A DNA stretch of 8,833 nucleotides, taken from IMG/VR virus record IMGVR_UViG_2547132277_000011, one strand, 5' to 3'. Positions 324 to 8,833 of this stretch are shown here, one piece after another; the stretch's first letter is position 1; each line of letters starts with the position of its first letter. This stretch comes from a virus. Lineage: Duplodnaviria > Heunggongvirae > Uroviricota > Caudoviricetes. Made by a program: the position numbers and the translations under genes. Under the pieces are notes generated by a model, which worked only from the letters and a program-made list of their open reading frames with translations, did no database searches and was not told the origin of the DNA.

Positions 324-992
324 ATGGTGAAATTAATGAAAAAAAACACAGATGATGGGGCTAAAATTTACACACCACTTACCCTAAAGCTTTATGACTG
401 GTGGGTTTTGGGAGTATCAAATCGGCTTGCATGGGGATGTCCTACAAAGGAACACCTTCTTCCACACTTTCTGGAACATTTAGGTAACAACCATCTGGAT
501 ATTGGTGTTGGAACTGGGTTTTACCTTACTCACGTACCTGAGAGTAGTCTGATATCTTTAATGGATTTGAACGAAGCTAGCCTGAACGCGGCATCGACAA
601 GGGCTGGGGAATCAAAAATTAAACATAAAATTAGCCATGATGTTTTTGAACCTTATCCCGCGGCATTACATGGTCAATTTGATTCCATTTCCATGTTTTA
701 CCTTCTTCACTGCCTGCCTGGAAATATATCTACAAAAAGCTGTGTAATACGCAATGCGGCGCAGGCCTTAACTGACGATGGAACTCTATACGGAGCCACA
801 ATTCTTGGTGACGGCGTTGTGCACAATAGCTTCGGTCAAAAACTGATGCGCATTTACAATCAAAAAGGCATCTTTTCAAACACAAAAGATTCCGAAGAAG
901 GCTTAACACATATACTCTCAGAGCATTTCGAGAATGTTAAAACCAAGATTAAAGGTACTGTAGTAATGTTTTCCGCTTCAGGGAAAAAATAG
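324..992 (+). CDS. ybcY: Class I SAM-dependent methyltransferase, UbiE/COQ5-like small-molecule type (not a DNA MTase by motif)
   Basis: 222-aa ORF with glycine-rich SAM-binding motif I (LDIGVGTG) and an upstream YDWWVLGVSNRLAWG segment resembling the UbiE-type motif. No DPPY/NPPY or PC/ENV DNA-MTase motifs seen. Start may be ATG 336 (GGTGA 5 nt upstream) rather than 324. Gene is markedly AT-rich (about 35% GC by hand count of the first 100 nt) compared with the neighbouring phage genes. The symbol is assigned from recalled synteny (a putative SAM MTase, ybcY, lies between tfaD and tfaX in K-12 DLP12), not from verified sequence identity. Confidence 0.85.
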   Translation: MVKLMKKNTDDGAKIYTPLTLKLYDWWVLGVSNRLAWGCPTKEHLLPHFLEHLGNNHLDIGVGTGFYLTHVPESSLISLMDLNEASLNAASTRAGESKIKHKISHDVFEPYPAALHGQFDSISMFYLLHCLPGNISTKSCVIRNAAQALTDDGTLYGATILGDGVVHNSFGQKLMRIYNQKGIFSNTKDSEEGLTHILSEHFENVKTKIKGTVVMFSASGKK

Positions 993-1046: not shown

Positions 1047-1175
1047 TTACTCCCTGACAGGGTTCGTAGGCCACTCAATATCAGGTGCAGTTGATGTACC
1101 AACACGGTTCAGCAACACCCTGCATGCCTTCCATGCCGCCAGCAATGATGTTTCCTCCTTCGTTGCATATACTGC
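1047..1175 (-). pseudogene. tfa: Tail fibre assembly (tfa) gene 3' remnant, C-terminal ~42 codons only
   Basis: Minus-strand frame translates to [42 protein letters not shown], homologous to the C-terminus of the 1..267 gene. Nucleotides about 1069..1170 are roughly 78 to 80% identical to 20..125 by hand alignment. The frame is closed by TGA at 1176..1178, so no N-terminal part remains. Confidence 0.65.
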
Positions 1176-1439
1176 TCACCTTTTTCACCCACGATTAACC
1201 AACAGCCAGATTCGCAGGCACGCCCCACCACGGCATATTCATACGCTTGCCATGTCCGAACATTTCAATCCAGCGATATTATGCCTGGGGTGTTCAAGCG
1301 CAATGAAGTACGTATTGTATCTTCGCGATTTTTTATAGGCTAATTGACGCGCAATTCTGAGCGGGGAGCGCACAATCAAACAGCACAGAATGGATCGCTG
1401 ATATTTATCCTTTTGTCGGTTTATCAAACAACAAGAGAG

Positions 1440-2654: not shown

Positions 2655-3235
2655 ATCGACTTTATACTTTTCAGGTTCAGCCTGTTGCTCTCATCACTGG
2701 TCATGGGAATAAAGTCCGGCTCGAGCGCCTCCAGCCAGAAATGAACACCGGCAGAAGGCGTCAGGCTGTTTATGCGCCCGGAAACCATCTGGGCAAACAC
2801 CTCACCATCGCGCAGCCAGGTACGCAGCATCAGACGTTCCAGCATCGGACGGGTAAACTGCCCGGTGACCTCCGGACTGACAGACCATTCACTCCATCGG
2901 GTGCGTATCTCCGCTGCCAGATCACGGGCAATGGCCCCATTGCGTAATACCGGATGTGGCTCGACAATAATCCCGTTTTTCCCCACCACCCGTTCTTCCA
3001 GCTTGTCAAATACACCAATGACCAGATCGTGGTTGTTATCAAGGTAACGGGCCTGCTCACGTAACGACACGGCCCCGTACTGGCTTAACTGATCGGCAGT
3101 TCGGTTCTCCCGTCGGGCTTTGTGTGTCCGCGTCGTTTTTACGGCCTCATAAGCCTGGATCACCGCACGGGAACGCAGCCTTGCCGCTTTCCATCCTGGT
3201 GAAAAAACGCCAATCACATCATCAAGAATTGCCAT
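2606..3235 (-). pseudogene. B: Portal protein gene, N-terminal fragment (about 205 codons of an expected 500 or more); truncated near 2655..2700
   Basis: ORF begins MAILDDVIGVFSPGWKAARL... at ATG 3235..3233, overlapping the gpW stop (TGATG), which is the position of the portal gene in the lambda order Nu1-A-W-B. It stops at 2606 after about 209 codons, the last ~28 of which (SNRLNLKSIKSICMLIQPESILTATLI) look non-portal. The ORF-track start at 3307 is an upstream in-frame artefact inside W. Confidence 0.7.
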
Positions 3236-3453
3236 CAGAACCTCGCCAGCCGGTACCCGGGATGCCCCCGTCGTCGTGTAATCAGAGCCGCAAGGCGGCG
3301 CTCCCACTCCTGCCGCCCCTGCCGGATCTCAGATAAGTTTTCCATGGTCATCTGCTGACCATTAAAAGTGACGGATTTTCCGTCCAGCACCGCCATTTCA
3401 GCTTCCGTATAACGCTGAATCATGGCTTCGATATCATTCTGGTTCATAACCAT
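3235..3453 (-). CDS. W: Head-tail joining / head completion protein gpW-like (72 aa)
   Basis: Small ORF immediately downstream of the large terminase, overlapping it by 10 nt. The C-terminus ...ITRRRGHPGYRLARF resembles lambda gpW ...RRRGPAGFYV. Size and position match lambda W. Confidence 0.85.
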   Translation of the reverse strand: MVMNQNDIEAMIQRYTEAEMAVLDGKSVTFNGQQMTMENLSEIRQGRQEWERRLAALITRRRGHPGYRLARF

Positions 3454-5546: not shown

Positions 5547-6040
5547 TACTCCTCCCGCTGTAATTCCTCCTCATCATCCGCACCTGCTTCGGTCACCCGC
5601 AGGGCTATCTGATCGCGCAGATCATCAATAATGGACTGAACACGGCTCACAGCGGCAGGCTGCAGACCGCAGTCACGTTCAAGAATATCCGGTAATGTCT
5701 CCAGCACCTGCACGACCGCTTTTGCCCAGATGGCAAACTCTCGTCTGACATCACTGGCCGGAATGAGTTGTGCCGTTTCCTGTTCGAACTTAAGACGCTC
5801 ACGTTCAGACTGATACCAGGCTTTGCGCTCATGCGCGTCCATTTCGCCTTCTGCAACCGGCGGTGGTAATGCCAGAAATGCCGACACAATATCAACCACC
5901 CGATAAAGCTTGAGGTTGCTTTCATGCCCCCCTGCAACGGGTAGATTTTGCAGCCTTGCCGCAGCAGTCTGGCGATGTACACCTGACAGTGCCGCCAGTT
6001 GACTGATATTCAGCGTCAGATTTTTTAACTCTCGATCCAT
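5546..6040 (-). CDS. Nu1: Terminase small subunit (lambda Nu1-like), 164 aa
   Basis: N-terminal helix-turn-helix-like segment (LNISQLAALSGVHRQTAAARLQ) analogous to the lambda Nu1 DNA-binding N-terminus. GGAG SD 5 nt upstream of ATG 6040. Located about 175 bp downstream of the cosN-like sequence, as in lambda. Confidence 0.85.
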   Translation of the reverse strand: MDRELKNLTLNISQLAALSGVHRQTAAARLQNLPVAGGHESNLKLYRVVDIVSAFLALPPPVAEGEMDAHERKAWYQSERERLKFEQETAQLIPASDVRREFAIWAKAVVQVLETLPDILERDCGLQPAAVSRVQSIIDDLRDQIALRVTEAGADDEEELQREE

Positions 6041-6876: not shown

Positions 6877-7344
6877 CTACTTAATGCGCTGGGTGCGGAT
6901 ATATTCCTGCGCCCCTTCCAGTTGCTTCTGCATCGTCATCAACCGTTCTCTGAGGGTGAAATAATCCCGTTCAGCGGTGTCTGCCAGTCGGGGGCTGGTT
7001 GCATTATCCATGCTGGTGGGTCCGGTGGCTTCACGCACGGCTGCGGAGCAACTGGCATTGACCCGCAGGCGCTTACGACCAGCGGCAACATCAGCGCGCA
7101 GAGTTTCATTTTCAGTTTTCGCATCGGCTAACTCCTTCGTGTATTTTGCATCGATCGCAGCAACATCACGCTGACGCTGCTGCATGTCAGCGATGGTGGC
7201 GGTCGCCTGCTTCAGCTCACTGACTTTTTTATCACGCTGTTCTTTGTAGGCGATGGCGTTATCACGGTAATGATTCAGCCCCAGACTAAGCACAACACAG
7301 GCCACCAGCAGCATAGCAATCACTACATACAGAACACGGTTCAT
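6877..7344 (-). CDS. Rz: Rz i-spanin (inner-membrane spanin), 155 aa from ATG 7344
   Basis: MNRVLYVVIAMLLVACVVLSLGLNHYRDNAIAYKEQRDK...DAKYTKELADAK...SPRLADTAERDYFTLRERL.TMQKQLEG matches lambda Rz near-colinearly. The ORF-track start at 7428 is an upstream GTG; I prefer ATG 7344, which aligns with the lambda Rz N-terminus. Confidence 0.9.
   Translation of the reverse strand: MNRVLYVVIAMLLVACVVLSLGLNHYRDNAIAYKEQRDKKVSELKQATATIADMQQRQRDVAAIDAKYTKELADAKTENETLRADVAAGRKRLRVNASCSAAVREATGPTSMDNATSPRLADTAERDYFTLRERLMTMQKQLEGAQEYIRTQRIK
6939..7124 (-). CDS. Rz1: Rz1 o-spanin (outer-membrane lipoprotein), 61 aa, embedded out of frame within Rz
   Basis: MRKLKMKLCALMLPLVVSACGS...CVKPPDPPAWIMQPAPDWQTPLNGIISPSENG matches lambda Rz1 (MLKLKMMLCVMMLPLVVVGC...PAWIMQPPPDWQTPLNGIISPSERG). 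Lipobox LVVSAC and a proline-rich body are present. It lies wholly inside Rz in another frame, as in lambda. Confidence 0.9.
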   Translation of the reverse strand: MRKLKMKLCALMLPLVVSACGSMPVAPQPCVKPPDPPAWIMQPAPDWQTPLNGIISPSENG

Positions 7345-7612
7345 ATCACCACCAACGGATTGCCCAGACCAGAACAGCGACCGCCACAAGGCGAATTGCA
7401 AAGGCCGTTGCCCGAATAAAATCAGCACTCATCTGTTTAAATAAATTGTTGTGTATGCAACCAGTGCAGTACAAATAATCCATGCAACTGGCGTCAGTAT
7501 ATGTCTGATGCCCCGGCATACCGCGATGATTTTTGCGGCATCGTCAGCACCCTGCGAAGTTGTTTCTGCTTTTATCATCAGTTGCCATGTCCCTCATGAC
7601 ACCCATCACCAC

Positions 7613-8149: not shown

Positions 8150-8833
<684 letters not shown>

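Follow-up and report, generated by a model that had tools for sequence, protein, structure and literature searches.

An intact copy of ybcY in a lambda-like prophage

We analyzed a viral stretch of 8,833 nucleotides (IMG/VR record IMGVR_UViG_2547132277_000011; Caudoviricetes), referred to here as the window, and in particular the open reading frame (ORF) at positions 324-992 on the plus strand, which an earlier note on this DNA had described as an AT-rich, non-DNA-type methyltransferase gene dependent on S-adenosylmethionine (SAM). This ORF, for which the possibility of a pseudogene had been raised, is intact at 222 aa, and it is a copy of ybcY, an AT-rich small-molecule-type methyltransferase gene that is catalogued but uncharacterised. 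Its product is 100% identical to RefSeq WP_000239880.1, and its nucleotide sequence is 98.1% identical to that of ybcY in the K-12 prophage DLP12, which is a frameshifted pseudogene flanked by the same tfa remnants. The protein also matched phrog_2132 (function not known) over its full length (E=8.2e-156), with profile positions 1-218 of 218 corresponding to residues 5-222. Membership in the YbcY family was thus found both by the full-length profile match and by orthology with K-12 ybcY in identity and synteny. The gene is already known as ybcY/phrog_2132 and is not a new finding, a point that had been overlooked; as an annotation, its description as an accessory gene was correct but routine, and the defence module proposed around it does not exist (see below).

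The GC content of the ORF was 40.5% (35.9% at third codon positions), versus 50-55% (50-63% at third positions) for the neighbouring phage genes. Over its first 100 nt we measured 36%, close to the previous hand count of about 35%, and the spacer upstream of the gene has only 28.6% GC. The contrast in composition with the phage surroundings therefore stands.

Start codon and selection on ybcY

Alignments indicate that the true start codon is most likely ATG336 (218 aa) rather than ATG324 (222 aa), because the homologs all begin at M5, which corresponds to ATG336, as does the 218-position phrog_2132 profile, and because ATG324 aligns with the Shine-Dalgarno sequence AAGGTG of the Klebsiella and Enterobacter homologs. 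We therefore place the coding sequence of this ybcY-family class I SAM-dependent methyltransferase at 336-992 (+), based on the ORF, Pfam, phrog_2132, WP_000239880.1 and an AlphaFold2 model. The preceding segment, ATGGTGAAATTA (324-335, +), is likely to be a Shine-Dalgarno region (GGTG, 326-329) and not coding; it aligns with AAGGTG(A/C)AAT(T/C)A which directly precedes the ATG in homologs from Klebsiella and Enterobacter, and the TTGATTTAATT element is kept upstream of these homologs. In K-12 ybcY, a 2-bp loss converts ATG336 to ATA and shortens the A-run that follows, and the K-12 copy is dead because of this loss at the start codon. The intact copy carries an A8 tract right after the start codon (336-347, ATGAAAAAAAAC; compared with positions 6013-6022 of the K-12 locus, L003), which could act as a slippage-prone on/off site.

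The alleles of the window and of three phages differ by 7-8 synonymous versus 2-3 non-synonymous codons, and the 90%-identity cluster of the protein contains 6589 sequences (222 aa). These comparisons indicate that ybcY is under purifying selection in E. coli, the K-12 loss notwithstanding. They also bear on the suggestion that the gene is a selectively neutral passenger that rides with the tfa recombination module and is functionless at present in E. coli, as the dead K-12 copy might suggest, together with the binding of H-NS to this region in K-12 and the lack of a phenotype for the K-12 ybcY mutant in the single screen that we found. We consider this suggestion unlikely, since thousands of genomes carry the ORF intact, as the size of the 90% cluster attests, synonymous changes exceed non-synonymous ones, and the catalytic motifs are kept across the family at a median identity of 39%.

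Expression signals

A promoter-like sequence, TTGATT-17-TATAAC, can be read in the spacer upstream of the gene (296-323, +). In a genomic SELEX (systematic evolution of ligands by exponential enrichment) study of K-12, this string was listed for ybcY as a constitutive site of the RpoD holoenzyme, an assignment that represents a pattern match inside an RNA polymerase-bound fragment and not a mapped transcription start site, and H-NS binding was marked in the ybcY/tfaX spacer (PMC3946193). Our scan of positions 1-1500 for canonical promoters and terminators called none; TTGATT-17-TATAAC was missed by the consensus scanner because the last base of its -10 element is C.

Downstream, a perfect 13-bp GC-rich hairpin (999-1033; dG -27.7 kcal/mol, z=-5.7) begins 7 nt past the stop codon, in the gap that separates the methyltransferase gene from the tfa gene convergent with it. 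On the plus strand no U-run follows the hairpin, which was not called by the scan for canonical terminators; on the minus strand, a U6 run lies 9 nt beyond the stem. It is possible that the hairpin serves as a 3' end or stabiliser common to the convergent transcripts.

ybcY lies in a probably mobile cassette bounded by tfa 3' ends

We found ybcY in 3831 of 5426 complete E. coli genomes (71%), with at most four copies per genome, and in 15 lambda-like phage records, including ev243, 2G7b, Kati, Turner and the PhiR series. The gene order in the intact phages examined is J-lom-stf-tfa-ybcY-tfa', with ybcY on the strand opposite to that of the late genes. In ev243 and PhiR29_1, a gene for a 494-aa hydrolase and ompT come after tfa', followed in ev243 by int. 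The gene thus lies in the non-essential b-region of lambda-like phages. The view of the gene as prophage accessory cargo is upheld, and most lambda-like prophages of E. coli carry it.

This conserved mobile cassette (tfa'-promoter-ybcY-hairpin-tfa 3' end; 21-1166, ~1.1 kb) was delimited by nucleotide identity across backgrounds. It is 95-97% identical (~21/43-1166) in K-12 DLP12, ev243 and PhiR29_1, and in Kati only to position 1032, and its flanks vary among these four backgrounds. The left arm is a tfa' remnant (1-267, -), a tfaX-like 3' part that matches Pfam Caudo_TAP in its C-terminal part only, and the right arm is the 3' end of a second tfa gene (1047-1166, -); both are annotated as pseudogenes by PGAP. 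A 101-nt direct repeat of the tfa 3' ends bounds the cassette (17-117 vs 1066-1166, 82% identity). Separate acquisition, which had been proposed from base composition, is supported by the occurrence of this one cassette in differing phage backgrounds and by homologs on plasmids and chromosomes of other genera. Transfer among phages would have occurred by homologous recombination inside the tfa genes.

The K-12 DLP12 locus is alike in its tfa'-ybcY-tfa arrangement and in the upstream TTGATT-17-TATAAC, and differs in the 2-bp deletion that cost it the ATG336 start. It also differs in what follows the cassette, which in DLP12 is appY-ompT-envY, whereas the cassette in the window is the last element before the prophage end beside potB.

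Several observations concern the arms of the cassette and its immediate surroundings. The tfaX-like remnant, which is divergent from the methyltransferase gene, overlaps a full-length match to Rfam IS009 (RF02111; 41-244, -; 126.9 bits, gathering threshold 117) and may be transcribed as a non-coding RNA. The ORF at 1129-1428 (-) is a frameshifted version of a 99-aa "hypothetical protein" of phiSTEC1575, located downstream of the tail fibre, with its 3' end swapped for a tfa 3' end, creating a mosaic joint at ~1166-1221. In addition, copies with 98-99% identity occur in HM037272.1 ("Bacillus thuringiensis CT-43 plasmid") and in a contig of a "Bacillus sp." metagenome-assembled genome; these Bacillus-labelled copies are most likely the result of contamination or mis-binning.

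The neighbouring 404-aa ORF is the scar of a deletion

The first 2.7 kb of the window are identical to chromosomes of enterotoxigenic-type E. coli such as B2C, in which the window forms the right end of a degraded lambda-like prophage adjoining potB. The 404-aa ORF next to the methyltransferase gene, which the earlier note had proposed as its possible partner in a defence or anti-defence module, lies within a truncated tail-fibre gene of which the C-terminal ~410 codons remain (1440-2678, -; phrog_13714 and PGAP). Against the tail-fibre family phrog_13714, whose profile has 631 positions, it aligned with positions 228-631 (E=1.8e-249); it shares 98.8% identity with the phiSTEC1575-Stx2k tail protein, and PGAP annotates it as a tail-protein pseudogene "missing N-terminus". 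Its ATG is an internal Met codon of the tail fibre. Homology to the tail module of phiSTEC1575 stops at 2680, and on the other side of this point lies the N-terminal stump of a lambda-type portal gene, comprising its first ~210 codons (2675-3307, -; Pfam Phage_portal_2 positions 3-149 of 354; PGAP pseudogene). At the deletion joint (~2675-2680), the portal stump is fused directly to the C-terminal part of the tail fibre; therefore, the head and tail morphogenesis block has been deleted, and the prophage is defective because of the removal of these genes.

The 404-aa ORF is thus a deletion scar and no partner of the methyltransferase, and since it is a truncated tail fibre the idea of a defence module fails. 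We also found no restriction gene in the window, as had been stated previously, nor, in the identical genome, within 15 kb to its left or right. PADLOC returned nothing for the 404-aa ORF and, for the methyltransferase, only a generic match to mad2 that was not significant (E=0.0039, 14 bits). A defence or restriction-modification module was therefore rejected on the tail-fibre identity of the ORF, the PADLOC results and the lack of a restriction gene. The wider proposal, that the gene either makes up half of a module acting in defence or anti-defence or encodes an orphan DNA methyltransferase shielding phage DNA, is largely refuted and in our judgment very improbable. The position of the gene among prophage accessory genes and the marginal mad2 match are all that speak for it, and against it are the origin of the 404-aa ORF, the fact that in intact phages the neighbours are tfa genes, the lack of any partner conserved in 80 loci of different species, the mostly chromosomal location of the family outside phage contexts, and the properties of the protein itself.

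The product is a class I methyltransferase with an intact SAM-binding core

The ybcY product is a 218-aa class I SAM-dependent methyltransferase in which the SAM-binding core is intact. It matched Pfam Methyltransf_12 (E=3.9e-9) and three further generic class I methyltransferase domains above their cut-offs, and it carries motif I as D59-I-G-V-G-T-G65 and the motif II acid as D81. G61, G63 and G65 are kept in 96-99% of the family and D81 in 99-100%. The AlphaFold2 model (predicted local distance difference test score 88.7) has the seven-stranded alpha/beta class I fold.

As the earlier note had read from its motifs, the protein is not of the DNA methyltransferase type: neither (D/N/S)PP(Y/F/W) nor PC(Q/K) was found in a search of its sequence, including the DPPY and PCQ forms, and it has no target-recognition domain. 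The protein contains no PC dipeptide as would be present in a DNA C5-cytosine methyltransferase, and the lone "ENV" tripeptide, at residue 203, falls in the C-terminal hairpin, out of context for motif VI. Furthermore, DNA methyltransferases were absent from the top 50-60 fold matches in both fold-search lists.

The best Foldseek match was PmtA of R. thermophilum (8ys9; E=1e-11, TMt 0.64-0.67), a protein of similar length, and other matches included juvenile hormone acid methyltransferase (JHAMT), PfPMT and PvPMT, the C-methyltransferase domains of CurJ and of a citrinin enzyme, CysG(N-16) and SgvM. Profile searches against PDB sequences and NCBIfam matched only the Rossmann core, and all matches fell below the curated cut-offs. 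The earlier assignment as "UbiE/COQ5-like" thus holds for a generic Rossmann core and not for the family: the window protein had no match to a UbiE model at E<=0.01, and 34-37 of 92 family members matched UbiE models weakly (best E=3e-8). The suggested placement by fold and profile searches led to small-molecule methyltransferases (PmtA, PfPMT, JHAMT, BioC/UbiE-like) and to no specific family among them. BioC, UbiE, UbiG and JHAMT share with YbcY the Rossmann core, motif I, the motif II acid and an "LxH/LEHV"-type motif after strand beta-4 (LLHCLPG in YbcY); they differ in that their curated cut-offs are not reached and in the N- and C-terminal signatures specific to the YbcY family.

Among enzymes of this kind, a carboxyl O-methyltransferase (BioC/JHAMT/Tam-like) could esterify a fatty-acid-like or dicarboxylic metabolite, for detoxification or to make a volatile or signal ester. 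Of the NCBIfam models, BioC drew matches from the largest share of the family (63 of 92 members, best E=1.3e-10), ahead of UbiE, CpaM and NodS; JHAMTs were the best PDB sequence matches of the family profile (E=1.6e-5), and genes for esterases or alpha/beta-hydrolases lie near the homologs in ev243, PhiR29_1, Enterobacter and Erwinia. However, the matches are limited to the Rossmann core and remain under the family cut-offs, and the nearby hydrolases are of differing families and positions and do not form a recurrent neighbour cluster, so we regard this activity as rather unlikely.

An alternative of a similar standing, somewhat improbable in our estimation, is a phospholipid or head-group N-methyltransferase (PmtA/PfPMT-like) acting on phosphatidylethanolamine or an ethanolamine/choline-type amine and altering the envelope of the lysogen. 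This would be a specific sub-case of the explanation that we prefer, methylation of a small molecule or lipid-like metabolite, and the b-region neighbours lom, ompT and bor are envelope-related. Besides PmtA 8ys9 as top Foldseek match, followed by several PfPMT/PvPMT entries, the points in its favor are a weak NCBIfam match to Legionella PmtA (E=0.0096; 15.8 bits vs a cut-off of 390 bits), an N-terminal helix rich in aromatic and hydrophobic residues, and a choline transporter gene adjoining the homolog on pEA29. Both PfPMT (3uj6/3uj7) and PmtA (8ys9) are, like YbcY, compact class I methyltransferases that consist of a single domain and have a lid helix at the N-terminus. Using a PfPMT sequence first verified to be identical to PDB 3uj6, hhalign aligned Y16, Y24 and H129 of the family with Y19, Y27 and H132 of PfPMT (Prob 73%, E=3e-5), with the phosphate-binding region of PfPMT outside the alignment. 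Tyr19 and His132 form the catalytic dyad of PfPMT, and the Y19F and H132A mutant structures among the Foldseek matches are consistent with this. Alignment of the family-invariant Y16 and H129 with this dyad gives a lead, namely that they are a candidate Tyr/His general-base pair that may act on an N- or O-nucleophile.

The protein has a pI of 7.2 and few conserved basic residues, which argues mildly against a nucleic-acid substrate. An RNA (tRNA or rRNA) methyltransferase that changes translation in the lysogen is quite unlikely for this reason, only three basic residues being well conserved, and further because the protein is a bare 218-aa catalytic domain without an RNA-binding extension and RNA enzymes rank no higher among the matches than dozens of small-molecule enzymes.

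A widespread single-gene family repeatedly captured by mobile elements

The family comprises 1748 clusters at 50% identity, of which 420 have E<=1e-30, and it is kept over its full length, with the signatures YDWWVL..SN..AW.C.T at the N-terminus and YN.KGIF.N..D at the C-terminus. Across the 420 clusters, Y24, D81, H129, G157 and D189 are invariant and motif I is ~97% conserved; residues at or near invariance, with a median identity of 39% within the family, include Y16, Y24, D25, W37, C39, H57, D81, S121, H129, C130, K138, G157, N186 and D189. Of these, C39, H57, H129 and C130 might conceivably form a metal site. Scanning one genome per species revealed a relative in at least 600 species, many of them environmental members of Pseudomonas, Dyella, Vibrio, Nostoc, the Acidobacteria and the Actinobacteria. 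The family is for the most part chromosomal and lies in non-phage contexts.

When all ORFs within +/-4 kb were clustered for 80 species-level loci, no conserved partner was found; only the generic SDR, ABC-F and LysR families recurred, in mixed positions, and DoxX and esterase neighbours occurred in a few loci without recurring across the 80. The longer homologs had no informative additional Pfam domain, with the exception of one RCC1 fusion. The gene was stand-alone or monocistronic wherever examined, i.e., in Salmonella, Enterobacter, Yersinia, Erwinia, Aeromonas and Klebsiella. The Salmonella homolog lies in an island that also carries sseJ, the Enterobacter homolog is chromosomal and monocistronic, that of Yersinia is near a GDSL autotransporter, that of the Erwinia chromosome is flanked by an esterase gene and DoxX, and that of Aeromonas lies amid insertion sequence elements. 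Plasmid-borne homologs include the one of E. amylovora pEA29 and those of ~600 Klebsiella plasmids, among them an IncFIB/IncHI1B virulence plasmid, on which the homolog directly adjoins rmpA-rmpD, peg-344 and iroN. Finally, a homolog with 31% identity adjoins the virR operon in the vap island of R. equi pVAPA.

On K. pneumoniae pF16KP0084-1 (locus L021, 5820-7648), a 65%-identical homolog is divergent from rmpA-rmpD-(rmpC), with peg-344 and iroN close by, and many hypervirulence Klebsiella plasmids carry two copies of the homolog. The Klebsiella gene was reported among liver-invasion-associated genes, together with the plasmid loci iro, iuc, peg-344 and rmpC (PMC9372168), an association that we read as linkage with the virulence plasmid. 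The literature mentions the R. equi homolog only as a gene that is conserved in the island, "with a potential regulatory role" (PMC5434932). As annotated, the R. equi copy (locus L020, 6103-6717; P. equi pVAPA1643) has a degenerate motif I, with GARSA for GxGxG, as well as Cys in place of the motif II Asp (D81) and Arg in place of C130. Either this copy is catalytically inactive or its gene model is wrong at the N-terminus, both of which are possible.

The idea that the family is specific to virulence was considered and is weakened, because the family is widespread in environmental Pseudomonas, Dyella, Vibrio, Nostoc, Acidobacteria and other bacteria. We conclude that the family provides a widespread single-gene function that has been captured repeatedly by mobile elements of host-associated bacteria and is not pathogen-specific.

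A proposed role for ybcY in the lysogen

The explanation that we consider probable is that intact ybcY is a "moron", an accessory gene that was acquired horizontally, stands alone and resides in the non-essential b-region of E. coli prophages of the lambda-like type. In the lysogen, ybcY would be transcribed alone from the AT-rich, H-NS-bound upstream spacer, or might be silenced there by H-NS. The enzyme would methylate a small molecule or lipid-like metabolite rather than DNA, probably by a general-base mechanism in which, by analogy with Tyr19/His132 of PfPMT, an N- or O-nucleophile is activated by Y16, located in the lid helix at the N-terminus, together with H129, which follows strand beta-4. 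The benefit would fall to the lysogen, through lysogenic conversion or metabolic detoxification, rather than to phage replication.

The niche is that of known lambdoid b-region morons. Like ybcY, lom, bor and ompT are located 3' of the tail-fibre genes, are AT-rich and have their own promoter (a putative one for ybcY), and they are, or can be, expressed in the lysogen and are not needed for lytic growth, as in the niche proposed for ybcY. In addition, ybcY is physically linked to ompT in DLP12, ev243 and PhiR29_1. It differs from these genes in that lom, bor and ompT encode outer-membrane proteins with known roles, whereas ybcY encodes what is predicted to be a cytoplasmic enzyme.

Several points weigh against this explanation. 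The prophage in the window is defective, and K-12 lost ybcY without obvious cost. The -10 element of the listed promoter ends 12 nt 5' of ATG336, which would yield a transcript without the putative Shine-Dalgarno region, and because the element is so near to ATG336, the transcription start site is uncertain. The PfPMT alignment has a probability of only 73% and ends short of the phosphate-binding C-terminal lid, and class I methyltransferases often have both a His following beta-4 and a Y..YD motif at the N-terminus. In the literature on ybcY, b0562, STM1638, the homologs of hypervirulent K. pneumoniae and R. equi, and prophage-moron methyltransferases, we found no functional study.

A bolder version of the explanation holds that YbcY-family enzymes are a recurrent host-adaptation factor, methylating a host-derived or envelope amine or lipid, and that they were captured independently by virulence-linked elements, namely the lambdoid b-region with ompT in E. 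coli, the plasmid of hypervirulent K. pneumoniae beside rmpADC/peg-344/iroN, the R. equi vap island, E. amylovora pEA29 and the sseJ-adjacent island of Salmonella. We consider this version improbable; if it were true, the product would contribute to in-host survival.

Present in ~71% of complete genomes, ybcY ranks with the most common prophage cargo genes of E. coli that are still uncharacterised. The methyltransferase family to which it belongs is large and strongly conserved and has no studied member, and some of the homologs reside on hypervirulent K. pneumoniae plasmids and in the R. equi vap island. Identification of the substrate would annotate thousands of genes and might explain why these genes travel with virulence determinants.

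Other genes of the window

The remaining genes of the window are on the minus strand and encode, from right to left, IstB, Rz, a DUF1441 protein, a gpA-type large terminase, a head-tail adaptor and the portal stump, with the DUF1441 protein occupying the small-terminase position. In the annotation of the identical genome, an IS21-family element (ISEc62 IstB helper ATPase; 8207-8833, -) interrupts the phage lysozyme gene. An ORF for an Rz1-like lipoprotein (MRKLKMKLCALMLPLVVSACGS...; 6939-7124, -) is nested out of frame within Rz (6877-7428, -), and nesting of Rz1 in Rz is the usual spanin arrangement.

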